Source: Candidatus Hydrogenedentota bacterium (lineage in GTDB: Bacteria; Hydrogenedentota; Hydrogenedentia; Hydrogenedentales; CAITNO01). Taken from it: a stretch of DNA of 64,000 nt. The notes under the pieces are model-generated. The model saw only the letters and a program-made list of their open reading frames with translations, was not told the DNA's origin and made no database searches. A program made the translations under genes and the position numbers. Shown here piece by piece: positions 5,202-53,241 of the stretch; position 1 is the stretch's first letter; each line of letters begins with the position of its first letter. The stretch is taken from positions 444 to 64,443 of the forward strand of contig JAAYBJ010000278.1 in assembly GCA_012730105.1 (NCBI GenBank), in the 5' to 3' direction.

Positions 5202-7049
5202 ATGATGAAATGTGCAGACATGGAAGCGCTTTTTCGGCGTAATAAAGCCCTTTTCGCTTTGAAAAACATCTGCGCCCTCCTGGTGGCGCTTGCCTGCTTT
5301 TCGTGGGCGGTTTCGGTCCTGGCGGAACCCGACGGCATACCGCAGGTAAAACTCAACGGCGTGGAGACGCCCAATCTTCGGAACCTGCTGGAAGGCCTTT
5401 CGCCCGCCCTATGGCAGAATAAAAACGCGCCGGCGTCCGAGGCTGCGTTGCGGGGACCGGCGCGCCGCCACCAGGAACGGCTAAGGAAGGCCCTTCAATC
5501 CGAGGGCTATTACAGCGCGGCAGTCGATTTTACGGTTTCGTGGTCTGAATCCGCGCCGGAAGCGGTTTTTAATATTGTCCCGGGACCCTTATATCACCTT
5601 GAGGAAATCAATGTCCGGGTCTGGCGGGACGCGGCGGAACAGGGACAACCGGAAGAAATCCTTCCAGCCGCCCTCGAAACGGGTCTGCAATCGGGGTCGC
5701 CCGCGCGTTCCGTGCCGCTCCTCGACGCGGAACAGCGGATTGTTCGACAACTTACCGGCATGGGATATCCCTATGCGCGTGCTGTTGACCGGGAAGCCGA
5801 GGTCGATCATGACAAGGCCGCCATGTATATCACCTATCTGCTCGAATCCGGGGAACGCCTTTCTTTTGGTACGCCGCGGATTTCTGGTTTGGAAAAGGTG
5901 CGCCTGGAAACCGTACAGCGTGAAATCGTCTGGACCGAAGGCGGCTGGTTCGATCAGGAATTGCTGGAAAAGACCCGGGATAAACTGCAGGAAAGCGGCC
6001 TGTTCACCCTGGTGCGCGTGAATCCCGCGCCGCCCGACGCGGTTGAGGACGGCCGAATCCCCATAGACATGGAATTCAATGAACGGCGCCATCGGACGAT
6101 CAGCCTGGGGCTGCAATACCGCACGGACGAGGGGGTCGGTGTGGCGGCGGATTGGGAACATCGGAATTTTATGAAACTGGGCCGCAGCCTGCGCCTCCGC
6201 AGCCAGGTGACGGAGCTGGAACAGAATTTCAGCGTGAACTATGACATCCCCGAGTTTATGGGTTCCAGAGACACGCTGACCTTACAGGCGAAAACGGCGC
6301 AGATTGAAACGGATTTCTACCAGAGCCGTCGTATGGATATCGGCGCCTGGTTGGAACACCCTTTTTCACCGGAGCGTTCCCTGGGATTCGGGCCGGCCCT
6401 GCGGGCAAGCCGGGTCAAGGAAACCTCCCGCGCTCAGAACTATTACCTCTTTTCGTTTCCGTTTCAATTCAGCCTCGATCATCGCAATGACCGCATGGAC
6501 CCGACACGGGGATACCGCTTTACGGACCGGTTGACCCCCTTTATGGATGTCCATGACACGGGGGTATGGTTCGTGAAGAATGAACTTACCCTCGCGGCGT
6601 TTTTCCCGTTGGGCGAGGAGTCCGGGTATACCCTGGCCGCGCGCCTTCACCTGGGCATGGCGGGGGGTGCGTCCCTGTCTAAAATACCGGCCGATGAACG
6701 GTTCTACGCCGGTGGCGGCGGCAGCATCCGCGGGTACGCCTACCAGGATGTGGGGCCGCTGGATAAGAACGGCGATCCTATTGGCGGCCGTTCCGTAACG
6801 GACTGGTCCCTTGAATTGCGAAAACGGCTGAACGAGCAGTTCGGCCTGGTCGTCTTTGTTGACGGGGGCGCTACCCATGAAAGCCCCTACTTCGATTTCA
6901 AGGATACCGTGCAGTGGGGCGCCGGGATCGGTATACGATACTTCACGCCCATAGGCCCCATGCGTTTTGACGTGGCCGTGCCCCTGAACCGCCGCAAAGA
7001 AATCGACAATGCCGTCCAGTTTTACATCAGTATCGGACAGGCCTTTTAA
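5202..7049 (+). CDS. tamA: Omp85-family outer membrane protein, TamA-like (POTRA + Bac_surface_Ag barrel)
   Basis: Signal peptide. Barrel terminus ...AVQFYISIGQAF is a typical Omp85 end. Immediately followed by tamB with a 2-nt gap. Confidence 0.75.
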   Translation: MMKCADMEALFRRNKALFALKNICALLVALACFSWAVSVLAEPDGIPQVKLNGVETPNLRNLLEGLSPALWQNKNAPASEAALRGPARRHQERLRKALQSEGYYSAAVDFTVSWSESAPEAVFNIVPGPLYHLEEINVRVWRDAAEQGQPEEILPAALETGLQSGSPARSVPLLDAEQRIVRQLTGMGYPYARAVDREAEVDHDKAAMYITYLLESGERLSFGTPRISGLEKVRLETVQREIVWTEGGWFDQELLEKTRDKLQESGLFTLVRVNPAPPDAVEDGRIPIDMEFNERRHRTISLGLQYRTDEGVGVAADWEHRNFMKLGRSLRLRSQVTELEQNFSVNYDIPEFMGSRDTLTLQAKTAQIETDFYQSRRMDIGAWLEHPFSPERSLGFGPALRASRVKETSRAQNYYLFSFPFQFSLDHRNDRMDPTRGYRFTDRLTPFMDVHDTGVWFVKNELTLAAFFPLGEESGYTLAARLHLGMAGGASLSKIPADERFYAGGGGSIRGYAYQDVGPLDKNGDPIGGRSVTDWSLELRKRLNEQFGLVVFVDGGATHESPYFDFKDTVQWGAGIGIRYFTPIGPMRFDVAVPLNRRKEIDNAVQFYISIGQAF

Positions 7050-7051
7050 TC

Positions 7052-10000
7052 ATGCGTGATGCCACCAGAATACGTCGCTGGCTGCGCCGGGGGCTCTATT
7101 GTGCCGTGGGTATGCTTGTCCTGTTTTTCGCTGCGGCCGTGACGATACAGACCCCGCCGGGGAAAGCGATGCTGGTTCGCGGTATTACCTATTTCGTGAA
7201 CCAACACACGTCTTTCACCATCGAAATCGAAGGCCTTTCCGGATGGCTGCCCGGACAGGTGCGCCTGGCGTCCCTGTATCTCGCGGACACCCGCGGCCCC
7301 TTTGTGGACATAGAAGACCTTGATCTGCGCCTTGTGTCGGCACAGCTGCTGCGGGGGCGCATCCGGTTGACGAAGCTGGATATCGGCCACCTGAAACTGT
7401 GGAACCGGCCCATTCCCAAGCAGAAATGGCGCATCCCGCGCATACCGGAAATACCTGTTTGGCCCCATATAGACGCATTGAACATCAAGCGCATGGTGCT
7501 GGACGAAGCGGTGATGGGCAGGGAAGCGGAACTTGCGATTACCGGGAAAGTCACTCCTGTGGAAGGGGCGTCCTTTCCCGAAACCGCCCTGGAGATTACG
7601 GGGCCGGAGACGGCGGACACTACGCGGGCGTCCTTTTCCTTTCATTATGTGGACGGCCTGCCGCAAATCTGGCTGGAGGCTTACGATGAAAGCCTGTTGC
7701 CCGCGTTTCTCGATGTGCCCCCGCCGCTGGTTGCGCAGGTTGACGGCAGGGGCGGCAGGGCGGACTGGAAAGGGCGGGTCGCCGTGACTGCGGGGGATGA
7801 TGATACGCTCTTTGAAGGCGATGCCCGACTGATGGAGGGGGTAAGCTCCACGGTTGAGGCCGACCTGATGATTAACGTAACCCGCACGCCCTTTCTTTCG
7901 GACTACGCGGAGTATCTGGGTGGCAGACTGGACGCGCGTCTTGCTGCCGTTCTTGACGGAAACGGACTTCTGGCGGTCAAATCCTGTGACATCACGTCCG
8001 AGTTTCTTAAGGCGGTCCTTGGCGGGGAGATTCAACTGGAACAAAAGCAGGCTGGCCTCTCGTTGCGCGTCGCGCATGCGGATATTTCACGGATTCCGGG
8101 AATGGACGCCGATAAAGGGGTTCTGCCAGCGGAACTCGATCTGGAAATCAAAGGCCCCTTTTCTGAACTTGCGGTTGCAGGCAAAGCATCCGTTAGTACG
8201 ATGGTCGTATTGGAGGCCGATCTGCGCGGGGGATTGGCCGAAACAGCCTCCTTGGGCGGTGTCGTTACCGTGTATCCCGGCCGCCTTCCTCTCGTTAAGA
8301 TGCCCTATACGGGCGGAGAATCTCTGAGGCTTGATTTCGATGGTTCTTTTGACGAACAAGCCGGGGTCCTGCAGGTGAAGCATGCGGACGTTACCGCGGC
8401 CGGGGCGCACCTTACTTTTCAGGGCAACTACGTGCCGGAGCAGCCTGCATTGAACCTCAAGGCGCATTTGGACGCCCCTGACCTGGCGACGACTGGCGCA
8501 CTGTTTGGATTCGCCCTGACGGGCGGTATGGCGGGGGATGTGGAATCGAGTGGGGGCGAATCAGGGCTGGAGTTCACCCTGAAACTGGAGGGATCCGGGC
8601 TGGAGGCCTTCTCCGTCTCCGGGCAACAGGCGCTCGTGACAGTGCAGGGGCGGTGTGGAGAATGGCACCGGATGCCGCCCCGGGCAGTATCGGCGACGGT
8701 GAACGCACAAGGACAGGGACTGATTCTGGCCGACAGGCATGCTGGAGACTGGAATCTGGCGATAAATGTGGAAGCGGACGACTGGACGAAGCTGAAGGCG
8801 CGGGACATGCTGCTTACGGACGGCAACGCCCGGTTAACGGGTGAAGGCGTTTTCGCGCTGTCAGAGAAGCACCTTGATTTGGAGCTTCAGGCGGATGTTT
8901 CCTCTCTTGCCGCCTTGCCCGTCGATATCGAAGGCCTGCCGGACGGCTCGTTGAATGCGCGAGCCAACATTGGAGGCACGTTTCAGCCCCTTTCCCTTGA
9001 TTTGCGGCTCGATACGGATCTCGGGGCCCTGGGTGGATTGCCGGCGCCTGTGGCCGCGCTGACAGGCAATGAAGTTCATCTTGGGGCGGAGGGTGTTATT
9101 TCCACGGAAGCGATCCGCTTTCCCAGGTTTGTTGTTTCCGGCCGCGCCTGCCAGGTGGAAGGCAATGCTTCCTATGGCATGCAAAGCGGAGAGGTGCTTG
9201 CGGGGGTGCGCGTGACGGTGCCGGACCTCAAACCGGTCGGCGCCGCATTGACTAAGAAACTTTCTGGTGGGATGTCCTTGGAAGCGGAACTGCGGGGGCC
9301 GGTCCGGGATCTATCCGCCCACGCCGATATCCGGGGAACGGATATTGTCTTTGAAGCGAATCCCTCTGCGCAGATGAATGTTGCGCTGGAGGGGTCCGGC
9401 TTGTCCGGTGAGCATCCCGAAGTCTCCTTGGATGCGCGCATGGAAATCGGAGGGGAGGCGATGAGCGCCACGGGCCTTGCCACACTGGATGCCGGCCGGA
9501 TTGTTGTTGCGCCGATGAAACTCAAATCGGGCGCCAACGAGGTTTCCGGCCGTATCGCCTACAACCTGGACTCCCGCAAGCCGGAGGCGGAACTTACAGC
9601 CGCGTTAAATGACCTGCAGTCCCTGGGACGCATGGCGGGCGCAGCCTGCTCGGGCAGTGCGGATGGGAAGGTGACTCTTGATGACGGCGCCATTACGGCC
9701 GATATGAAGGCGCGGTCCGTGACCTACGGGAGTATGAAGGCCGCCGATATCCATCTGAGCACGCGTATGAAGCACGACGGGAAAGGCTATTCCGGAACCA
9801 CAGGCATGGATGCTTCAGGAATACAGGCCGGCATGGCAGGACTGTCCTCCCTCAAGATCAACGTGGACGGGGGCCTAAACGAAGCCGCCATGACCATCGC
9901 TGCCGAGGGGGCCCTGACCGGAGGTGCGACGGAATCGCAGCCCTTCACCCTGCGCGTGAAAAGTCGGGTATTTCCCGGCGAACGCAGTGTGATCGTGGAA

Positions 10001-11785
10001 GAGACCAAGGGTGTGCTGGGCGATTTTGAGTACGGACTGGAGGAACCCGCCAAAGTGATAGTCCCGGCATCCGGTATTACATTGAATCCAACGGTCTTGC
10101 GTTTCGGCACCGGCCGCCTGCATATCCAGGGGCGGCAGGAGGGCGACAACCTGTCGGCCGAGACGCGCGTGGAGGCGTTGCCCCTCGCCGCCGGAGCCAT
10201 GTTCGGCATACCTCTTCTGACGGGAACACTTGACGCGGATATGTCCTTGAACGGCAGCCTATCCGATCCTCTTGTAAAGATAGCTTTCAGCCTCAACGAG
10301 GTGCGGTTGCAGAACGAGTCGGCGGCGGGTCTTGCGCCCCTGGAAGCCCATGGTGAATTTTCCTTGACATCGGCAGGATTCGAGACCACCGTCAAAGCGG
10401 ACATGAAAGATACCCTGCGCTTGGAATGTCAGGCGGCTTTGGCGGCCCGGGTGCAGTTGATACCCTGGGTATTGGACGCGTCCGCGGATACAGGCCTGTC
10501 AGGCAAGGCAATGTTTGAGATTCAATTTGAGAAGCTCCTCGCCGCGCTGGGACTGGACGAACACTATCTCGAAGGGACGGCATCCGGCGAGTTTAGCCTC
10601 GCCGGGGGACTGTACCGGCCTGACATTCGGGGCGAGGCGGCGTTGCGCCAGGCCGTCTATGAAAACACCAAAACAGGAACCCGGCTGCAAAATCTTAACG
10701 CAACCCTCACAGCGGAAGACGGCATCCTGCGCCTTACGGAATGCACGGCGGATATGGGGGGGCAGAAAAACATGTCCGCTTCCGGAGAAATGCGCCTGCT
10801 CTACGCGGAACAGTTTCCTTTCAAGGGCACAGTCCACCTGTCCGACGCCCGTTTTGCGGATCTGGATTATATGAACGGCCGTGTGAATGGCGACCTGAAT
10901 GTGGAAGGCTCCCTAAAGGACATGCTGCTCAAAGGAGACATCAAGGTAACGCCCGTCGAGGTGTCCATGCCGGATGAGATGCCCGTAAAAGAACTGCCCG
11001 TGCTTGAAGTCACCGAGATCCGGGACGGCCAGGCGGTCAAGCAGGAGGAGGAGAAGGGGCCCGGTTTTGCGGATCGCGTAAGGCTTGACATCAAGTGCGA
11101 CATCCCCGGCAAGGTGTACGCGCGTGCCCCCATTCTGGATTCCGAATGGGGAGGGAAACTGCATGTCGGCGGAACCCTCGCCGAGATGCGGATTGACGGA
11201 AGAGTCGCGGTACTGCGGGGGCATCTTGATTTCTTGAACCGGCGCTTCCAGTTGCGCGACAGTGCGTTGTTGTTCCTGGACGGTTCCCCGGAAAAGCCAT
11301 ACCTGGACATGCAGGCCGTTGTGGAAACGTCCTCCCTTTCAGCAAGGCTGACGTTGAAGGGAGAACTGGACGATGTCAAGATTGAGTTGTCGTCAGACCC
11401 GGTGCTGCCGCAGGATGAAATTCTGGCGCAGATCCTTTTCGGGCGCAACCTGTCACGCTTGTCGCCCGTGCAGGCCATTCAACTGGCCCGCGTCGCGGCC
11501 ATGTTTAACCAGGGCTTTGCCGGGGTCCCCTTCTTTTCAGGAAACATAAAATTGCCGGGTATCGATCGCCTCGATTTGCGCACCGGGGAACGGGCTGATG
11601 AAACGGCGGTCGGCATGGGCAAATACTTCACCGATTCGGTCTATGTCGAGGTGGAACAGGGCACGACCACGGACAGCAGCCGCGTTTCCGTCGAGGTGGA
11701 GGTGACGCCGCAGATTTCCGTCAAGGGGGACGCCGATGCCAAGGAACGCAGCGGAGTCGGCCTTTTCTGGAAAAAGGATTATTAG
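7052..11785 (+). CDS. tamB: Translocation and assembly module protein TamB (DUF490 C-terminus)
   Basis: 1577 aa. N-terminal TM anchor (LYCAVGMLVLFFAAAV), long beta-rich body, C-terminal DUF490-like end ...GVGLFWKKDY. Translationally coupled to tamA. Confidence 0.75.
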   Translation: MRDATRIRRWLRRGLYCAVGMLVLFFAAAVTIQTPPGKAMLVRGITYFVNQHTSFTIEIEGLSGWLPGQVRLASLYLADTRGPFVDIEDLDLRLVSAQLLRGRIRLTKLDIGHLKLWNRPIPKQKWRIPRIPEIPVWPHIDALNIKRMVLDEAVMGREAELAITGKVTPVEGASFPETALEITGPETADTTRASFSFHYVDGLPQIWLEAYDESLLPAFLDVPPPLVAQVDGRGGRADWKGRVAVTAGDDDTLFEGDARLMEGVSSTVEADLMINVTRTPFLSDYAEYLGGRLDARLAAVLDGNGLLAVKSCDITSEFLKAVLGGEIQLEQKQAGLSLRVAHADISRIPGMDADKGVLPAELDLEIKGPFSELAVAGKASVSTMVVLEADLRGGLAETASLGGVVTVYPGRLPLVKMPYTGGESLRLDFDGSFDEQAGVLQVKHADVTAAGAHLTFQGNYVPEQPALNLKAHLDAPDLATTGALFGFALTGGMAGDVESSGGESGLEFTLKLEGSGLEAFSVSGQQALVTVQGRCGEWHRMPPRAVSATVNAQGQGLILADRHAGDWNLAINVEADDWTKLKARDMLLTDGNARLTGEGVFALSEKHLDLELQADVSSLAALPVDIEGLPDGSLNARANIGGTFQPLSLDLRLDTDLGALGGLPAPVAALTGNEVHLGAEGVISTEAIRFPRFVVSGRACQVEGNASYGMQSGEVLAGVRVTVPDLKPVGAALTKKLSGGMSLEAELRGPVRDLSAHADIRGTDIVFEANPSAQMNVALEGSGLSGEHPEVSLDARMEIGGEAMSATGLATLDAGRIVVAPMKLKSGANEVSGRIAYNLDSRKPEAELTAALNDLQSLGRMAGAACSGSADGKVTLDDGAITADMKARSVTYGSMKAADIHLSTRMKHDGKGYSGTTGMDASGIQAGMAGLSSLKINVDGGLNEAAMTIAAEGALTGGATESQPFTLRVKSRVFPGERSVIVEETKGVLGDFEYGLEEPAKVIVPASGITLNPTVLRFGTGRLHIQGRQEGDNLSAETRVEALPLAAGAMFGIPLLTGTLDADMSLNGSLSDPLVKIAFSLNEVRLQNESAAGLAPLEAHGEFSLTSAGFETTVKADMKDTLRLECQAALAARVQLIPWVLDASADTGLSGKAMFEIQFEKLLAALGLDEHYLEGTASGEFSLAGGLYRPDIRGEAALRQAVYENTKTGTRLQNLNATLTAEDGILRLTECTADMGGQKNMSASGEMRLLYAEQFPFKGTVHLSDARFADLDYMNGRVNGDLNVEGSLKDMLLKGDIKVTPVEVSMPDEMPVKELPVLEVTEIRDGQAVKQEEEKGPGFADRVRLDIKCDIPGKVYARAPILDSEWGGKLHVGGTLAEMRIDGRVAVLRGHLDFLNRRFQLRDSALLFLDGSPEKPYLDMQAVVETSSLSARLTLKGELDDVKIELSSDPVLPQDEILAQILFGRNLSRLSPVQAIQLARVAAMFNQGFAGVPFFSGNIKLPGIDRLDLRTGERADETAVGMGKYFTDSVYVEVEQGTTTDSSRVSVEVEVTPQISVKGDADAKERSGVGLFWKKDY

Positions 11786-28900: not shown

Positions 28901-30222
28901 GCGTGGCCATTTACCGTGACAACGATAATCATCCCAACAACCGCAACGGACTTTTTGACCCGGATATCGATATCCCGATGAGCCTGGATACCCCGCCCCG
29001 GTTTACAGGGCGCAACGCCGAAGACATCAAAGTACGGTTTGCGTTTTCTCTGCCCGGAACGCGGGATTTCCCGCTGCCGATAGCCGATCAGCCCAGAAAC
29101 CGTCAATGGGTGCCCGACACCTTCGGTACCGCCGCCGGTGACCCGGCGAACGGTTCGGATTTCATCGTTGTGCTGCGCGCCGCGCAGGGCATGCAGGTGG
29201 GTGACAACCTCCGTGCGGGCATCGTCTCCTATGGGCCGAACACGCCCACCGAACCGGATCCGCATATCTGGGCAGGGTTCGAGACGGACGGGCAGTATGA
29301 TTATCTGAAGTTCCGTGAATTCCCCTGGGCGGACCGGGGTGTTGGGTTTGTGACCTTCTTCAAAGAGGCGCCGACCTGGTATTTCATGAACGGATACAAT
29401 GGCGTGCAGCGTCCCGATACCAGCGGGTACAATTGGATTCGCTCGAGCAGCACCGAAAAGCGGCGGTCCGGCTTGGTTACCGCCCGGAACCGGCCGATCG
29501 GACCGCAAACCATTGAGATTACCTCCGTGTCGCAAAGCGTGCTGCCCATACAGACGTTGCCCGGCCAGGGCTTCTCCTTCGTGATCTACGGCACCAATTT
29601 CGGCACAAATCCCACCGTGGTGTTGAGCGGTTATAACGTCACGGTGGACTCGGCCACCGACACGGCCATACGCATTACTATTGAGAGCCGTGATGACGTG
29701 GTGCCCCAGGAGCCGGTGACGCTTATCGTGCGTAATCCCGAAACCGGGGAAGAGGTGAGCAGGTCAGATCTCTTCTCGTTGACTGGCAATATGAGCATTA
29801 CCGGGCCGAAGCTGCTCCGGGTCGATCCGTCCAGCGGCCGGAAGGATGATTTCCCGGTTACCATACTGGGTGAAAACTTCTTTGATACGGCCAATCTGGC
29901 CGTGCATTTTGACGGCACCCTGATGCCGATATTGGATGTTTCGGCGGATGGCACCGCCATCACCGTCGGTTTCCCCATTGGCGGCCTGCCGCAGCCCGGG
30001 TTGCTGGACGTCTCCGTATCCAGCACCGGCGCAAACAGCGGTAAGGACATCCTGATTGACGGGTTTGAGTATATTAACCCCGAGTCGCGGGAAAAAGTCC
30101 GTTTCTTCGGCTGTTCCCCGGCGACGGGAGAGTCCGCGGGTATTTTTGGCGACCTGGTGTTGCTGGCCGCGCTTGTCGTGCTGTTGGCCGTTTCCGGACG
30201 CCGCCGCGGCGTACAATCTTGA
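22939..30222 (+). CDS. Giant secreted protein (reprolysin-like pseudo-zincin domain + Kelch propeller + IPT/TIG domains + C-terminal sorting-signal-like tail)
   Basis: Start set at ATG 22939 (MIFSRVSPTKGKRILLSVMMLPLFMAVILGVSAS signal) with GGAG 8 nt upstream; the ORF opens at 22885. Degenerate zincin block RQTGYNLGCNN at 23989-24021. Six Kelch-like blades (WLLGG/WLLGGY/YVMGG/FVMGGQ/WVIGGW). Two IPT/TIG-like domains near the C-terminus. The tail is FGCSPATGESAG + hydrophobic helix + RRRG. Confidence 0.8.
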   Translation: MIFSRVSPTKGKRILLSVMMLPLFMAVILGVSASRLPLEAAVPAEPAVSATALVYGVGESTVYSEIPEKKQTLRRREVIVDKSVLESDAFVTGESTVTFLLFDDLLLSGVLERESSPMPGVRNCSGRILEKEHGYFSFSFDDAGRSLTQIEVLEDRIAYIISEDTLSGNYYVVELPLDQVHTAASYAPLSAPVPESGDDLVAMEENDSSAGIDVLVAYTPEAEAWADANRSGIANVLAQSLERANQTFADSEVDLRLRLVLAAPVAYQESGDANTDLFRATFSADFDPDGLDTEGALDELQEWRESCGADLVVLMTAGANGAAWLMKDPAGDARYGFSVVPVQNADVALVRQTGYNLGCNNSRNQQENPAAEEGGLYDFSTGARWVGDDGQGYASIMTCPEGDLQVFLFSNPEINFAGVPTGAYDGPGAPADNARSLRAAMARVAAYREEKTPEEGEGGPEEGESAESDNQNEDDKDGESISEKTGASDAAMDKAVAEPRIYIFGGTYGYTGEDPLGFDKLLADNVYKMTTSPPAGHVWESKSYNSEFGYRAGHANIVNSQGLWLLGGFSNIAASPDRNEIWLLKANDETWERRVTYAAWEGRRGHTALFFDGKAWLLGGYRAKTSTSEEKFYNDVFYSGDVMTWTQKTAAANWAARTYHTSAVFDGKMYVMGGAAKDTEGSLARFDDIWYSEDGGNWTQETPGTHWSPRYGHTSVVFEITPGQPRIFVMGGQVGDDFTNKSSYANDVWSSEDGINWTEETGNAGWAGRREHASVVYDGKIWVIGGWYRDGGTSHDLRDVWYSTNGRDWVMADPQPSWFARRGLSAAVFPAEGGGEGEGETEGEGPTEGETEGETEEVPAADLSIESKVRDKEALLPLHDWVPLFRIAMSFEDDNPAPRYLKRLVYRLVNDDSFDDERGLNYQVIQDLDASDLLEFGIFNDFNVEGDQAGVARNGNLDSGDELLFSWDSHGYDRGRLLTANPVEGSNLLYDITFDYTNRLYNLSASCTCDGEGSTYIVAVRTSATWRSQLSLGVEVLEAEMVTPAGVRPVDEEGAPIDSYSPDFYGEDPETLEAGAFYSASFGAYDPSGPDFSSMPVVSEWGTVPTPNFWQRTPHLAIPLAEFSRPRWNKPLQLMTIATGQFMEFRNLLSMDDWTAVVGINLHASRSYSGGLNDQGKAVLREVNVILTDVGGDPYGEPGNGGFNPRNALKPVIDARADGGTDGHHVCHNGLWVWHDTNNNQLFDVPTPQLVGGVSFSGDEPLYSYENYYEWEYIPEPPGGGDPWWKMRLRFLGTDEYPQAYVEAPPDNASFNFDDDGVKVSSEFSYDYFVVARFDSGFRDCSLRPATNAGARPGAEFRAFIEPRRYDVIAGSWTGGIYVDSQIPTMDLPLPVGPWQNDPRWFDEPFWPERTLNADAAKPFRLGVEVHDLVLTYKPEVDLNDYRMLLEDPLQYLFMLTPNYLIAENLELSFQSLGYVPVENMLPSLLGLWTDPLGLAMSQFQNGHYPEIYTFFPVEISLTSSIFGNTFQLLTTRWPYPQDCFENAPFYSDYTDVAPQGPRSAAYPVPPEAPVTPSYLTWPGQPVRGQYPRFSDWDPADARARLLTQKISANSKHTPMLGINLTGSVDPVVNSEGNSASLAEVNVAFWGPDFSPDILKPLDPDNNKNQSLASGVLLWDNDPAAPTSIFMPRVFFNTEELDGYGDSPLPMFHRIVPVTGAKWGVAPELVDLSGDGLADDLDGNGYVDEADKAWVLTLAPGANWELPQNDVPGTETGGLDLYITVKTSDQIGRFQKFRAVVPATLPSRPSNQRDAGIQFYPALNTSSRAYLKAHGDEGPVQEYYGHDMMEANVPMKIVDMTQRWTDINIGGSAVPVLGLDIATNRADGTRAQGNFGTGSPGTFVVDTVNWVANAFAGDFLIDERFESYEILSNTSNALMLRSGTPRGGAWRIVQDPTFLEEVTVELYQEGTVATFNPLTDLLPLDIDQRISGVAIYRDNDNHPNNRNGLFDPDIDIPMSLDTPPRFTGRNAEDIKVRFAFSLPGTRDFPLPIADQPRNRQWVPDTFGTAAGDPANGSDFIVVLRAAQGMQVGDNLRAGIVSYGPNTPTEPDPHIWAGFETDGQYDYLKFREFPWADRGVGFVTFFKEAPTWYFMNGYNGVQRPDTSGYNWIRSSSTEKRRSGLVTARNRPIGPQTIEITSVSQSVLPIQTLPGQGFSFVIYGTNFGTNPTVVLSGYNVTVDSATDTAIRITIESRDDVVPQEPVTLIVRNPETGEEVSRSDLFSLTGNMSITGPKLLRVDPSSGRKDDFPVTILGENFFDTANLAVHFDGTLMPILDVSADGTAITVGFPIGGLPQPGLLDVSVSSTGANSGKDILIDGFEYINPESREKVRFFGCSPATGESAGIFGDLVLLAALVVLLAVSGRRRGVQS

Positions 30223-30256: not shown

Positions 30257-32866
30257 ATGACTAAGGCTATGCGTCTTCTGGCAGCGGTTGCCTGTGTTGT
30301 GCTGGTGACGGCCGGACTTGCCGGATCCGCCTACGGGTTCTTCCCTAAGGGCGGGTTTAACCTGAACCAGCAAATACGATACGCCACCTGGCCCTTCAGA
30401 GATTTCGATACGAATGAAAATGGCACCATTGAAGAGGGTGAAGGCTTGGAATTTCGTATTGAAACCGGGCCTCGGGGCTTCAGCAGCGCTGAGGTCGATC
30501 TGGTCAAGGCGGGCTTCGCCGTCTGGCAGGATGTGCCCACAAGCTACGCCGCTTTTCGCTTCGTGGGAAATATTGAAGATCCTCTTCTTCCGGGTATGCT
30601 GAACATGGATTACCTGCCTATGGTGTTCATGCAGGTCGAAGAAGTGGCCGCGGATGACGGGTATTCACAGCCGGATGCGGATGAGTACCTGACCTCGGGC
30701 CTGTCTTGGGCCATTCCGGCCATTACCTACCTTACCTATACCATAGACACCGCCGTTATCGATGTGGCCGAAAGACAGGTCATTGTCCCCGCCGGAACCA
30801 TCCTCGATTGTGATATTGTGGTCAATGCTTCCGTTCATCGCGCCGGCATTGTTACCGGTACCAGCTTTGGCACCCTGGATCTTCAGGCCACCGTCGCGCA
30901 TCATGTCGGACAGTTGCTTGGACTGGCCTATACGCCGCTGAACAATCTGGACCCGTATAACGAAGTGACCATGGAAGGCGCCGATATCGGTTTGCCCGTG
31001 GAGCCCGCGGTGCTGCAGATTACCGGCACGGACGGTTTGCGCGGTATCCGCGGGGCGACGCCGACCATGTTCCCCGTCTATTTCCTTACCGAAATGCCGG
31101 AAGGCGATTTTGTAGGCGGCTGGCGCGATCTTGCGCCCGACGACATTTCCGGCATTTCCTGGCTTTATCCCCGGGAGGACGGGTTGCAGAATTTCTTCAC
31201 CGTCCAGCAGGAAGCGCGCACCCACACGCGCGATACGTCCGGGGTGCCGTCTGCGCCGGTGTCCGGGGCCCATATTGTGGCGTGGGCAAGCCTGGGAACG
31301 GGCGATACCGGAGAACGGGTGCCCCTGTTCAGCACGATGACGGGCCTGTATCAGAAATCTTCCAACACCCAGTTGCAGGGCAGGTTCAGCCTTATGGGGC
31401 TCTGGAAGCAAATGGAACTGCCCGGCGGGCTGGATGTGATGTACGAACCCTCCTATGTGTTCACAATGAATCAACTGAACGGGGCCGGTTATGAGCGTCA
31501 GGCGCCGCCGGAGGTGACCCCGGACTATTTCGACAGCCTGCAGGGGCCCATCCCGGTCAGTTATTCCCTTTATACGCGTGATCCCGGATCTTTCAGCACC
31601 AATTATCCCTCCGAGGTCTATAATGAATATGGAAACGTGTATGGGATCGACAATTATGTCACCGGCACGCCGCTCGCCTGGAGCTTCACGAAAAATACCG
31701 TGGTGAGCCGGGAATCCGACAAGATACTGTCTGAAATGCTCCCTACCACCCGGCCCATGTTTGGGGATCAGGACGTTGTCTGCCCCATGAATATCATCGA
31801 GAATATCGGAGAAGGAACCACCGATACCGAAACCGTGCTTGATGGCGCCGAAGGGATTCTTGAAGGTATTACCGGAGAAGGGGATCTCGGCGGGTTGACC
31901 GGGCTCCTGGGCACGTTAGGCAAAGATGACGGCAATTCCGGCGGATGGGGCGGCGGTTCCGGCGCGCGTGCAGTCTTCGCGCGTGTCAACTACCGACTGC
32001 GCGCGTTTCGTGATGATGTGCTGCTCAAGTCGGCAGCCGGTACCGCGCTTGTGGACCTGTATTATCGGATTGCACCTTACCTTGCGGGGCAATTGTTGAG
32101 ACACGGAACGGTGCTGCGCCTGGTGCGCGGAATTATCCTTGCTGGAACAAGCATCTGGGAGTCTGGAATCATGACCTTTGGTTTGTTGACCGTCGCCGGC
32201 CTGCTGATATGGAGATTGCGGCCGCGTACGCGCGGCCTTCAAGCGGCGGCGGCAGGTATGCTGGTTTTTATCGTGGTCGTTTCCGCTGCCTTTGCCGGGC
32301 AAATGCCCATACCTACCGAAGACCTCGTCGCGGAAGCCAGTTATATCTTTACCGGCGAAGTAATCAGCGCGGACGGGCGCGTGGCCGGAGACAACCGTAT
32401 TTACACGGATGTCGTTATCAAAGTCCGCAATGTGGTGAAAGGGCAACTGAACCAGAACTCCAATCTGACATTTTCGGTTGTCGGAGGCAAATATGGAAAC
32501 ATCGTGACCTCCGCTACTTCCATTCCGGGCTTTGCCAAAGGGGACCAGGCGTTGTTGTACCTGAAGGATACCGATAAATTCGGGCTGATTCCCTTTGGTG
32601 GCTATCGGAGCAAGGTGCCCATCGTGCTGGACCCGGAGACCAACGAAGAAATGCTTGTCAGTGACGGCGCCCTGGTTGAAGGAGAAGCGGAAGAGGGCGA
32701 GGGTGCGGATACCGAGGGTGAATCAACCAAAAGCCGCATGCCTTCCACGGACGAAGACAACGTGGCCAGTTCCAGTCCGGCGCCCCCGGCGGAGACGCCT
32801 TCCGGATTGGTGCCGCTGGATGAATATCTGTACTATCTGCGCGGGCTGGTTCGAAGCCTGCGCTGA
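30257..32866 (+). CDS. Secreted/membrane protein with matrixin-like domain bearing degenerate HExxH (pseudo-metalloprotease), partner of giant protein
   Basis: Signal peptide MTKAMRLLAAVACVVLVTAGLAGSAYG. Matrixin-like AEVDLVKAGFAVWQDV...AAFRFVG and TLDLQATVAHHVGQLLGLAYT (HExxHxxGxxH degraded to HHxxQxxGxxY). Two TM helices near residues 590-650. Acidic EGE tail. 34-bp gap after the giant gene. Confidence 0.75.
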   Translation: MTKAMRLLAAVACVVLVTAGLAGSAYGFFPKGGFNLNQQIRYATWPFRDFDTNENGTIEEGEGLEFRIETGPRGFSSAEVDLVKAGFAVWQDVPTSYAAFRFVGNIEDPLLPGMLNMDYLPMVFMQVEEVAADDGYSQPDADEYLTSGLSWAIPAITYLTYTIDTAVIDVAERQVIVPAGTILDCDIVVNASVHRAGIVTGTSFGTLDLQATVAHHVGQLLGLAYTPLNNLDPYNEVTMEGADIGLPVEPAVLQITGTDGLRGIRGATPTMFPVYFLTEMPEGDFVGGWRDLAPDDISGISWLYPREDGLQNFFTVQQEARTHTRDTSGVPSAPVSGAHIVAWASLGTGDTGERVPLFSTMTGLYQKSSNTQLQGRFSLMGLWKQMELPGGLDVMYEPSYVFTMNQLNGAGYERQAPPEVTPDYFDSLQGPIPVSYSLYTRDPGSFSTNYPSEVYNEYGNVYGIDNYVTGTPLAWSFTKNTVVSRESDKILSEMLPTTRPMFGDQDVVCPMNIIENIGEGTTDTETVLDGAEGILEGITGEGDLGGLTGLLGTLGKDDGNSGGWGGGSGARAVFARVNYRLRAFRDDVLLKSAAGTALVDLYYRIAPYLAGQLLRHGTVLRLVRGIILAGTSIWESGIMTFGLLTVAGLLIWRLRPRTRGLQAAAAGMLVFIVVVSAAFAGQMPIPTEDLVAEASYIFTGEVISADGRVAGDNRIYTDVVIKVRNVVKGQLNQNSNLTFSVVGGKYGNIVTSATSIPGFAKGDQALLYLKDTDKFGLIPFGGYRSKVPIVLDPETNEEMLVSDGALVEGEAEEGEGADTEGESTKSRMPSTDEDNVASSSPAPPAETPSGLVPLDEYLYYLRGLVRSLR

Positions 32867-51504: not shown

Positions 51505-53241
51505 ATGGATATGAACGTATCCGAAACGTTGGAGAAACTGACCCGGTTAATGGATGACATGGACGCCCTGTATGCGCGGTCCATCGGCGACATCGAGGAA
51601 AAACTGGAAGCGGCGCGGGGTGCGGTGTCGGTAGCAATGCTGCCGCGTGAATCAGCCCCGGAAAAGCAGGGTCAATCCCTGGAGGAGAATGCGTCGCTAC
51701 AGGTGGAAATTGGTCAGTTAAAAGCGACAATCGCGGAACTCGAAGGGGGAGTGGAAGACGGGGAGCGTGGGCGGGGTGTGCTGGAGGAAAGTATCCGGGG
51801 GTTGCAAAGCCAGCTCGGAGAACGGGATACGCTTTTGCAGTCGGTACAAAACGAATTGTTGCTGGCCCGGGAAAAAGTCGCCAAAATGGATGAACTCGAA
51901 AGGGCAGCTGCGGAATGCGAACTTCTTCGCGGGGATCTTCAGGCAAAAAATGAGGAGTTGGAGCGGCTGAGCGCGGCGCTGGAGGAACTCCAGGTAAGAG
52001 CCGGACAGGCCACTGAACTGGAACAGAGCCTTCAGGAACGCGATGGGAGCCTTCGTGAACTGGAGGAAAAACTGGCGGCGCTTGAACAGGGGGCCCGGGA
52101 AAAAGAAACCGCCCTGGAGACCTCCTGCGCCGAGCTGAAAACTTCTTTGGAAGGGGTCACCGGTGAGCTTGAGGTGTTGCGGACGGAGTACCAGGCGCAG
52201 GGGGAGGCGTTGAACGCGCACAAGACCGAACGCGAGTCCTTTACCAATGAACTGGACATCCTGCGCATGGACCACCAGGCTATGCTCACTGAACTCGAAG
52301 AGCATAAGGCGTTGGCGGAAAAGGCGCGCGAGCAGTTGGCGGCTCTGGAATCTGAAAAAGCGCAGGTCGCGAAACAACTTGAAGAAATACAGAATGCAAA
52401 AGGGGACAGGGAGAAATTGGAACAACTGCTTCAGCAGCGCGAGGAAAAAGTAGGCGAGCTGGAACAGGCGTTGACCAAAACCAATGAAGAGCGCGAAAAA
52501 GCGGAGTTGCAAGCCAAAATGCTGATGGGGCAGATGGACAGCCTGCAATATCAACAACGGGAAATGGAAACGCTCAAGGAACATGTGGCGCGCTTGGAAG
52601 GGGAATTGGAGCGGGAGCGTGCCACGGTGCTGCGCCTCAAAGCGCAAGGCCCCGCGCCTGCTGCCCCCATTGTGAAAAAAGGCGAGGGCAGAGATTCGGA
52701 TTACATGGTTTCCCCGCCGGCACTCAACGAGGAACCGGCCCCGGCCCCGGCCAAAAAACTTACCGTCAATTTTGAGCGGAGCCGACGGGGCCAGCGCAAG
52801 CGCATCGGGGAAATCCTGATGGAGGCTGAAGTCATAACCCAGGAACAACTGGATACGGCGCTGAAATTAAAAACAAAGGATCCCAGACGTCGTGTAGGCA
52901 GTATTCTTGTTGAACTCGGCCATGTCACCGAGGCGATTGTCGCCGCCGCACTGGCTGCCCAGTTGCGCATGCGTTATATTGAAGACCTGAACCAGGAATT
53001 GGATCCCGGGGTCATCCAGTTTGTGCCTCCCCATATCGCGCGAAATCACCGGTGCGTGCCGCTGATGCTTAACGCGGGCACGCTGGTGGTGGCCATGGCC
53101 AATCCACTGGATCTGATCGCCATCGAGGATATAGAAATCGCTTCAAACATGCGGGTGGAGCCCGTCGTGTCTTCGTCGTCGGATATTGATACGGCGATTA
53201 CCCGGTACTACCTGCGTAATGGCGCGATGGCGAATCACTGA
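51505..53241 (+). CDS. Coiled-coil protein with C-terminal T2SS-E N-terminal (MshEN-like, putative c-di-GMP-binding) domain
   Basis: About 400 aa of heptad-rich E/L/Q/R sequence. The C-terminus has two MshEN-like motifs, RIGEILMEAEVITQEQLDTALKLK and RVGSILVELGHVTEAIVAAALAAQ. Confidence 0.55.
   Translation: MDMNVSETLEKLTRLMDDMDALYARSIGDIEEKLEAARGAVSVAMLPRESAPEKQGQSLEENASLQVEIGQLKATIAELEGGVEDGERGRGVLEESIRGLQSQLGERDTLLQSVQNELLLAREKVAKMDELERAAAECELLRGDLQAKNEELERLSAALEELQVRAGQATELEQSLQERDGSLRELEEKLAALEQGAREKETALETSCAELKTSLEGVTGELEVLRTEYQAQGEALNAHKTERESFTNELDILRMDHQAMLTELEEHKALAEKAREQLAALESEKAQVAKQLEEIQNAKGDREKLEQLLQQREEKVGELEQALTKTNEEREKAELQAKMLMGQMDSLQYQQREMETLKEHVARLEGELERERATVLRLKAQGPAPAAPIVKKGEGRDSDYMVSPPALNEEPAPAPAKKLTVNFERSRRGQRKRIGEILMEAEVITQEQLDTALKLKTKDPRRRVGSILVELGHVTEAIVAAALAAQLRMRYIEDLNQELDPGVIQFVPPHIARNHRCVPLMLNAGTLVVAMANPLDLIAIEDIEIASNMRVEPVVSSSSDIDTAITRYYLRNGAMANH

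Follow-up and report, generated by a model that had tools for sequence, protein, structure and literature searches.

Tripartite C-terminal sorting signals that carry an invariant cysteine have, as their published cognate enzyme, an intramembrane protease of the CPBP/Rce1 type (bioRxiv 10.1101/2023.06.07.544157; PMC11980579). Each of the four published signals whose Cys is invariant is linked to CPBP proteases (Haft 2023, bioRxiv 10.1101/2023.06.07.544157), and the link was shown experimentally for MrtX (Guo, Haft and Wall, mBio 2025, PMC11980579). Delivery of MYXO-CTERM and GlyGly-CTERM proteins onto the surface of the cell requires a type II secretion system (T2SS), and an internal MYXO-CTERM made by gene fusion is present in MXAN_5598 (PMC11980579).

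A giant-protein open reading frame of 2445 codons lies at positions 22885..30222 of the window (the whole 64-kb stretch of DNA analysed) on the forward strand, like all features of the giant and its downstream partner given below, and ends in EKVRFFGCSPATGESAGIFGDLVLLAALVVLLAVSGRRRGVQS. The public gene call starts at Met19 (22939..30222; 2427 aa), and this start, read by eye, opens a typical Sec-type signal peptide (MIFSRVSPTKGKRILLSVMMLPLFMAVILGVSASRLPLEAA; 22939..23061), which is also kept in the orthologues P0024 and P0029. A Mep72-like metzincin domain is followed by a Kelch propeller and a long middle part without annotation, after which two IPT/TIG ('choice-of-anchor Z') repeats lead to the sorting tail. 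The IPT/TIG domain at aa 2216-2294 (29530..29766; PF01833, 35.1 bits) belongs to the last folded region ahead of the tail; its match to the NCBIfam 'choice-of-anchor Z' model (CoaZ, NF058597) was at threshold (30.5 bits, cutoff 30), and choice_anch_D matches of 36-41 bits were under the cutoff of 45. The tail thus occupies the spot where sorting signals come after NCBI 'choice-of-anchor' domains.

The tail (30085..30222) was present as the original prediction had described it, a C-terminal segment of the tripartite sorting-signal type. Its signature Phe-Phe-Gly-Cys-Ser-Pro (FFGCSP, 30103..30120; Cys at 30112..30114) is followed by a small-residue spacer (ATGESAGIFG, 30121..30150), an Asp at the helix mouth (30151..30153), a hydrophobic segment predicted to span the membrane (LVLLAALVVLLAVSG, 30154..30198) and a predicted cytoplasmic end (30199..30222) made up of an Arg cluster (RRR, 30199..30207), GVQS and the stop codon (30220..30222). 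No second such tail was found in any other open reading frame of the window.

When 54 non-redundant tails were compared, the consensus was hydrophobic-Phe-Gly-Cys-[Ala/Gly/Ser]-Pro, then a spacer of small residues, an acidic residue, a hydrophobic helix and 3-5 Arg/Lys. The Cys was present in 54/54 tails and was the sole Cys of the tail in 53/54. Position -2 to the Cys was F/L/I in all 54, position -1 was G/A/S in 48/54, position +1 was A/G/S in 49/54 and position +2 was Pro in 36/54. All tails had the acidic residue (Asp in 50, Glu in 4), with Gly just before it in 38/54, and the Cys-to-acid distance was 13 in 34/54. The spacer was conserved in length and not in sequence (G 29%, A 17%, S 10%, P 10%); the helix was 12-18 residues long (mode 14-15), with 3-5 Arg/Lys within the following 8 residues in 50/54 tails. 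Cys and Asp were unchanged among giant orthologues just 40-63% identical, in which spacer and helix sequences drift. Read from the tail alignment, the signature is under strong purifying selection.

A 46-position profile was built from the tails alone and run, with position unconstrained, against 1.84 billion proteins. It gave 23 matches at E<=1e-3, and 23/23 were at the extreme C-terminus, showing, like the constancy of Cys and Asp, that the tail is not a chance feature; since just 23 database matches reach this level, the client repertoire is poorly sampled. The profile found the tail on proteins otherwise dissimilar to the giant, and it ends secreted proteins of at least five unrelated kinds, with bodies made of VesB/HYDIN-type Ig domains, RHS+PKD+PASTA, InlB-repeat+cohesin/dockerin, HYR, or Lcl_C+CarboxypepD_reg. 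The tail is retained throughout a second family, P0028 and its relatives at 32-39% identity. These unrelated carriers come from related Hydrogenedentota rather than from the window's own genome; the giant orthologues, L011 and L070 were placed in Hydrogenedentota; contigs L010 and L012 received no taxonomic assignment. Most full-length carriers have a signal peptide, read by eye in the giant and in 10 further carriers. The tail therefore shows what marks a Cys-type sorting class: a motif-helix-Arg order at the extreme C-terminus, an invariant Cys, exported carriers as judged by eye from the N-terminal signal peptide, and sharing among non-homologous proteins with several per genome, the last point resting on one assembly (JADHEF01). 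In that related Hydrogenedentota bin, two unrelated carriers were found, L026 (contig JADHEF010000008.1) and P0028 (contig JADHEF010000005.1). The original prediction had proposed a search for other proteins with this tail and would have fallen back on a plain membrane anchor had the genome encoded neither such proteins nor a sorting enzyme; unrelated proteins with the tail were found, and the prediction was not refuted.

No NCBIfam or Pfam sorting-signal model reached threshold on the tail, including the TIGRFAM C-terminal sorting-domain models that had been proposed as a check. The curated models matching most often, JDVT-CTERM, MYXO-CTERM and PID-CTERM, each weakly hit 3/29 tails; IPTL, PVV and every other curated C-terminal model were absent or under cutoff. 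Like MYXO-CTERM/MrtX (Myxococcota; TIGR03901), the tail is an extreme C-terminal tripartite segment in which helix and Arg cluster accompany an invariant Cys, sits on unrelated surface proteins with N-terminal signal peptides, is linked to type II secretion and has an internal fusion copy (MXAN_5598 there, L020-L025 here). However, it differs in phylum, in its single Cys where GCGC is frequent in MYXO-CTERM, in its defined Phe-Gly-Cys-x-Pro motif (MYXO-CTERM is reportedly without a lipobox) and in a longer 12-residue spacer with an invariant Asp ahead of the helix. Membership in MYXO-CTERM was rejected on the score (TIGR03901.2, 6.8 bits against a cutoff of 20), on the host, which belongs to Hydrogenedentota and not to Myxococcota/Bradymonadales, and on the single Cys. 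The earlier likening to a MYXO-CTERM-like, Cys-containing class nevertheless named the right class.

JDVT-CTERM/MrtJ (Pseudomonadota) resembles the tail in length, in having one invariant Cys and in the invariant Asp downstream of it; among all curated sorting-signal models, JDVT-CTERM (NF033191) produced the strongest match to a single sequence (E=2.8e-4). Its Asp-Pro lies at Cys+9 inside the helix, whereas the Asp here is at +13, at the helix mouth, without Pro; it has one client per genome and an adjacent protease, whereas several clients and no adjacent CPBP gene in ~60 loci were observed here, and membership was rejected on these grounds. GlyGly-CTERM/rhombosortase (Vibrio VesB) is likewise tripartite and T2SS-linked, and VesB-type Ig domains occur in several of the carriers, but GlyGly-CTERM is without an invariant Cys and Asp. 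Membership in it was not supported, with no TIGR03501 match at E<=10, no conserved Gly-Gly and no rhomboid in the window; PEP-CTERM, a class also raised in the original prediction, was discarded with no TIGR02595 match at E<=10 and no exosortase in the window. As in the lipoprotein lipobox (Lgt/LspA), hydrophobic-hydrophobic-small residues precede the Cys, but the topology is inverted, with the Cys ahead of the helix and at the C-terminus.

More distant giant orthologues have a full CFI-box-CTERM (NF041770, cutoff 40 bits) in the tail's slot. P0010 and P0014 scored 84 and 87 bits, ~17 loci likewise carry the full anchor, and the Cys-tail clade of the giant is nested within this CFI-box grade. 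The two anchors share the slot after the same TIG repeats, the Cys at their start, the helix and Arg cluster at their end and the T2SS linkage. By contrast, the short tail is without the CFIATAAYG motif and the ~50-residue helical core (LRxFRDxxLL..YY..SP), and the giant's own tail had no match to the CFI-box model, which rules out membership. In the giant family the short tail probably descended from, or replaced, a CFI-box-CTERM anchor that begins with a Cys at the same place. A literature search found no publication on CFI-box-CTERM. The genes gspC-D-E-F-G were directly downstream, on the same strand, of the giant and its neighbour in 18/27 distinct loci; the window's own clade has lost this linkage, which attaches to the giant-plus-neighbour pair, not to the tail as such. 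In L020-L025 (six independent assemblies) the downstream partner is fused in frame to the giant, so that the tail runs into the partner's signal peptide, an arrangement that fits removal of the helix and Arg segment during maturation.

The window contained no CPBP, rhomboid, exosortase or sortase in Pfam and NCBIfam searches, which agreed with the original prediction that no cognate sorting enzyme is visible there. No processing enzyme was found beside any of ~60 carrier loci or in four further carrier contexts, and the multi-pass membrane ORFs adjoining carriers were MFS, SSF, nucleoside and ABC transporters. An unannotated 7-TM ORF (18423..20210) was considered as the enzyme and rejected, having no match to a protease or sorting-enzyme model and no counterpart beside other giant loci. 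The sortase, exosortase or rhombosortase that had been suggested gives way to the CPBP/Rce1 type, the published enzyme of Cys-type signals (PMC11980579).

We consider it probable that the tail belongs to the Cys-containing tripartite signals as a new, modular and lineage-specific member, with MYXO-CTERM-like processing and delivery of its carriers by the T2SS. Judging from its signal peptide, the giant would be exported by Sec and then stay anchored in the inner membrane through its C-terminal helix, the Arg cluster facing the cytoplasm as the positive-inside rule predicts. By analogy with known systems, the invariant Cys, which lies in a lipobox-like Phe-Gly-Cys context ~13 residues outside the helix, would be covalently modified, most likely lipidated. 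Cleavage immediately behind the Cys by an intramembrane protease may then release the helix and Arg tail, and the Asp at the mouth of the helix would be a putative recognition element; cleavage beside a modified Cys would resemble that by LspA and Rce1 (CaaX). The T2SS would carry the folded protein across the outer membrane, as the conserved gene linkage suggests, and the modified Cys could keep it at the cell surface. The most likely protease would be a relative of the CPBP/Rce1-type 'myxosortase', encoded elsewhere and serving several clients in a housekeeping role.

A plain C-terminal membrane anchor, in which helix and Arg cluster tether an exported protein that is neither cleaved nor modified to the inner membrane, appears unlikely. 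The helix and basic cluster would be enough for anchoring, and no sorting enzyme was found in the window or the related loci. However, such an anchor needs neither an invariant Cys in Phe-Gly-Cys-x-Pro nor an Asp at a fixed 13-residue distance, and both residues recur on unrelated proteins and are kept even in orthologues with as little as ~35% identity. It also leaves the conserved T2SS adjacency unexplained, because the T2SS could not serve an adhesin-like protein of 2400 aa that stays tethered to the inner membrane, and it sits badly with L020-L025, where the tail is fused to the signal peptide of the next protein.

Processing by another class of enzyme, a rhombosortase or an exosortase/archaeosortase-type transpeptidase to which the Cys is secondary, is doubtful. 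GlyGly-CTERM substrates likewise depend on the T2SS (PMC11980579), the spacer is Gly-rich and several carriers have VesB-type Ig domains ahead of the tail; on the other hand, no Gly-Gly or PEP motif is kept, the GlyGly-CTERM and PEP-CTERM models were unmatched even at E<=10, Cys and Asp are the only invariant residues, and the four published signals in which a Cys is invariant are all CPBP-linked, as shown experimentally for MrtX. The tail might also be an evolutionary remnant, a CFI-box-CTERM minus its helical core whose Cys is kept by descent with no signal function of its own. The nesting of the Cys-tail clade in CFI-box orthologues and the Cys that begins both anchors at the same place would suit this, but the same Phe-Gly-Cys...Gly-Asp tail on unrelated proteins that show no CFI-box ancestry, and the strong purifying selection on the signature, make it very improbable. 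An LPXTG-like sortase substrate, as the original prediction had read SPATG from its superficial likeness to LPxTG, deserves practically no credence and is already refuted because the motif is not conserved: T and G of SPATG are kept in no orthologue (beyond the Cys solely [A/G/S]-P is), the weak Pfam Gram_pos_anchor match (PF00746) reached 12.6 bits against a cutoff of 20, the host is diderm since TamA/TamB/Omp85 are encoded, and no sortase gene is present in the window.

If the Cys-type reading holds, the tag would let the surface proteome of the uncultured Hydrogenedentota be listed from sequence alone, including giant adhesin-like proteins, RHS proteins and cohesin/dockerin proteins. It supplies annotators with a missing model, as no curated model recognises the tail yet, and its well-defined Phe-Gly-Cys motif makes it a cleaner substrate than MYXO-CTERM for asking which enzyme modifies the Cys. 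The anchor swap and the common T2SS operon linkage give CFI-box a first functional context, as a Cys-type, T2SS-linked anchor. There is also a slim chance that the tail and the ancestral, widespread and uncharacterised CFI-box-CTERM together represent an undescribed Cys-dependent surface-anchoring pathway with a dedicated T2SS. A C-terminal 'reverse lipobox' would then be lipidated, the helix clipped and the Cys now at the C-terminus maybe carboxyl-methylated by an ICMT-family enzyme, so that bacteria would have an equivalent of the entire eukaryotic CaaX pathway; the processing enzyme could come from a family as yet unlinked to sorting. As in CaaX processing (prenylation, Rce1, ICMT), an ICMT-family methyltransferase gene lies beside one carrier, directly upstream of P0034 (45.5 bits against an equivalog cutoff of 160). 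The adjacency remains a single case because no ICMT homologue was found in 60 giant loci and one genome-collection scan returned a single distant relative, without the tail nearby.

The conserved downstream partner (869 aa, 30257..32866) has a signal peptide and a metzincin-like domain, besides a CFI-box-like segment without the Cys, a membrane hairpin of two helices and a C-terminal domain of ~170 aa. The CFI-box-like helical segment (LRAFRDDVLLKSAAGTALVDLYYRIAPYLA..., 31997..32137) matched NF041770 above threshold (42.3 bits, cutoff 40, model positions 19-65) and is kept in both anchor clades. It was rejected as a second sorting signal or fused enzyme because it is internal and covers the helical core only, without the CFIATAAYG Cys motif. 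The metzincin-like catalytic motif of the partner is decayed in the window copy (AHHVGQLLGLAY).

The observation of a sorting-signal-like tail was confirmed, and its closest counterparts were Cys-type rather than sortase-type signals. The giant secreted protein carrying it is encoded by an ORF of 2445 codons (22885..30222, + strand) ending in ...EKVRFFGCSPATGESAGIFGDLVLLAALVVLLAVSGRRRGVQS*, and the C-terminal sequence quoted in the original prediction matched this end exactly. In public gene calls on identical contigs the protein started at Met19 (22939); as read from the sequence, this start gave a typical Sec signal peptide, which was kept in orthologues. The body combined a metzincin domain of the Mep72 type with a Kelch propeller and, towards the C-terminus, two IPT/TIG repeats that also matched the 'choice-of-anchor Z' repeat of NCBI. 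No other ORF of the window had a comparable tail. Names on the homologues P0003 and P0014 indicated that the source is a Candidatus Hydrogenedentes/Hydrogenedentota bacterium, and the TamA, TamB and Omp85 encoded in the window showed that this bacterium is diderm. The adjoining TamA (Omp85/POTRA) and TamB genes occupied 5202..11785 (+), confirming a diderm envelope with a translocation-and-assembly module.

Comparison of the final 343 residues with 15 homologues (40-63% identity) left only four invariant positions in the tail: the Cys of FFGC, one Leu, one Arg and an Asp just ahead of the helix. SPATG, originally read as an LPxTG-like motif, was not conserved, and the LPXTG model scored 12.6 bits against a cutoff of 20. 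The sorting-signal reading was supported for a signal of the Cys type, but not for an analogue of LPxTG/sortase substrates. A signature was derived from 54 non-redundant tails pooled over all searches. The Cys was present in 54/54 and was the sole Cys of the tail in 53. It was preceded mostly by F, L or I at position -3, by F (43), L (9) or I (2) at -2, and by G (40), A (6) or S (2) at -1; A, G or S followed at +1 in 49/54, and Pro (36) or Gly (10) at +2. After a spacer rich in Gly, Ala, Ser and Pro came an acidic residue (Asp 50, Glu 4), preceded by Gly in 38/54 tails and placed exactly 13 residues from the Cys in 34/54 (range 12-17), then a hydrophobic stretch of 12-18 residues and 3-5 Arg/Lys.

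No curated model matched the tail at its cutoff. PVV-CTERM reached 15-17 bits (cutoff 27) and IPTL-CTERM 12-13 bits (cutoff 20.5); of the two CTERM classes originally suggested, MYXO-CTERM stayed below cutoff (6.8 bits; cutoff 20) and PEP-CTERM gave no match, nor did GlyGly-CTERM. Across 29 tails, JDVT-CTERM, MYXO-CTERM and PID-CTERM matched most members (3 each, weakly), and two of these three models describe Cys-type signals. MYXO-, JDVT-, Synerg- and CGP-CTERM form a class of Cys-containing tripartite signals, each paired with a CPBP/Rce1-type intramembrane protease (Haft, bioRxiv 10.1101/2023.06.07.544157). The present tail satisfied the structural definition of this class but matched none of its four named members. 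It is best read as a new Hydrogenedentota-associated variant of these signals.

With a tail-only profile of 46 positions, a search of 1.84 billion representative proteins gave 23 matches at E<=1e-3, all of them at the extreme C-terminus. Only six were homologues of the giant when the bodies were compared with it by BLASTP. The remainder had other extracellular architectures: VesB/HYDIN/ASH-type Ig domains; RHS repeats with PKD and PASTA domains (2809 aa); InlB B-repeats with cohesin and dockerin; HYR; and Lcl_C with CarboxypepD_reg. Most full-length carriers had N-terminal signal peptides. The tail was also retained throughout a second family, made up of P0028 and eight further members at 32-39% identity, with Glu in place of Asp in one clade. 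The absence of other carriers, which would have counted against the original prediction, was not borne out in related Hydrogenedentota: one genome bin had at least two unrelated carriers, since the contig encoding a tailed giant orthologue (L026, JADHEF010000008.1) and that of P0028 (JADHEF010000005.1) belong to the same assembly. The P0028-type locus L070 and a further locus, L011, were assigned to Hydrogenedentota through S18, DnaX and sulfatase clusters at >=90% identity; the contigs L010 and L012 received no assignment.

A plain membrane anchor was judged less likely, because the invariant Cys and Asp occur on unrelated proteins. By analogy with the named class members, the Cys would be modified, a CPBP-type protease would cleave the tail, and the carrier would be anchored at the surface. 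For MYXO-CTERM, Cys-dependent cleavage by MrtX has been shown experimentally (Guo, Haft and Wall, PMC11980579), and the same authors propose that Sec export is followed by lipidation of the Cys by an as yet unidentified enzyme, cleavage and delivery to the surface through the T2SS (PMC11980579).

Gene order tied the tail to type II secretion. A gspC-gspD-gspE-gspF-gspG operon was located directly downstream of the giant and its conserved partner gene, on the same strand (flank-gene clustering, Pfam-confirmed). Among distinct loci whose downstream sequence reached at least 5 kb, it was present in 10/12 with a CFI-box-CTERM (NF041770) end and 8/15 with a Cys tail (18/27 in total). The operon occupied 6019..12801 in L009 and lay ~3-10 kb downstream of the match in L034, L037-L039, L042-L044, L048, L051, L053-L055, L059, L060 and L068; the linkage was lost in the window's own subclade. 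A long coiled-coil protein of the window (51505..53241, +) ended in an MshEN-type cyclic-di-GMP-binding domain; the secretion ATPase domain normally found after it was missing.

In the giant family, the tail probably derives from a CFI-box-CTERM ancestor. In the orthologues P0010 and P0014, the same CoaZ repeats were followed by a full CFI-box-CTERM end, scoring 84 and 87 bits against a cutoff of 40. A metagenome scan recovered 56 orthologous loci. CFI-box-CTERM was found in ~17 of them and the short Cys tail in ~30, in some cases as a divergent version (for example, FLFGCGSGK...GD- or YMFGCGERQ...FD-...KKKQ). Both ends start with a Cys a few residues past the last TIG domain, and a rough, midpoint-rooted neighbour-joining tree built on the ~300 residues ahead of them placed the Cys-tail orthologues in a single clade inside the CFI-box orthologues. 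No paper mentioning CFI-box was found in a literature search. The Ig domain before the tail in the P0028/P0032 group resembled 'choice-of-anchor D' of NCBI (36-41 bits; cutoff 45).

The partner (30257..32866, +, 869 aa) adjoined the giant in all loci. Its domain order runs from a signal peptide and a metzincin-like domain through a helical segment that resembles the CFI-box but has no Cys, to a two-helix hairpin whose loop is basic and, last, a C-terminal domain of ~170 aa. Its HExxHxxGxxH zinc-binding motif was intact in many lineages (HEIGHLLGLGH); in the clade of the window it had degenerated to AHHVGQLLGLAY (near 30899..30931), suggesting that the partner is a pseudo-protease there. Six independent assemblies (L020-L025; e.g., L021 5405..13498) had the giant fused in frame to the partner as ...GD-LLLLAILGSVLFAM-RRRAVR-ITLPLLLLLLFAAAPGHA-FFPKG..., so that the tail helix and Arg cluster (RRR) ran straight into the partner signal peptide as a predicted membrane hairpin. 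A similar internal MYXO-CTERM arising from gene fusion was reported in MXAN_5598 (PMC11980579). Giant-partner read-through was also seen in L045, L046, L052 and L063.

As originally noted, no cognate enzyme was visible in the window: genes for sortase, exosortase, rhomboid and CPBP proteins were all absent. Multi-pass membrane ORFs adjoining tail carriers were transporters, and further carrier contexts gave no enzyme candidate; such a lack of adjacency is described for housekeeping sorting enzymes that serve many clients (Haft, bioRxiv 10.1101/2023.06.07.544157). A 595-aa ORF with ~7 predicted membrane helices (18423..20210, +), separated by 2.7 kb from the giant gene downstream of it, had no significant Pfam or NCBIfam match. 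The last (third) step of eukaryotic CaaX processing is carried out by isoprenylcysteine carboxyl methyltransferase (ICMT). In a single case reminiscent of that step, an ICMT-family gene (L012 9246..9893), whose product scored far below the equivalog cutoff, lay 107 bp upstream of the unrelated carrier P0034 on the same strand. P0028-family carriers lay in a small conserved neighbourhood (L070 10001..13856 and the P0039 contig), where the carrier was followed by a TPR protein of ~155 aa, an unknown protein of ~150 aa and then a sulfatase; a sulfatase gene also lay just upstream of the giant gene (20236..21612). Glu-Gly repeat runs (GEGEGETEGEG...) formed linkers in the giant at ~25480..25570 (aa ~866-895) and ~24320..24400 and recurred near the N-termini of the unrelated carriers P0028, P0038, P0041 and P0044; they possibly represent a low-complexity spacer common to Hydrogenedentota surface proteins.
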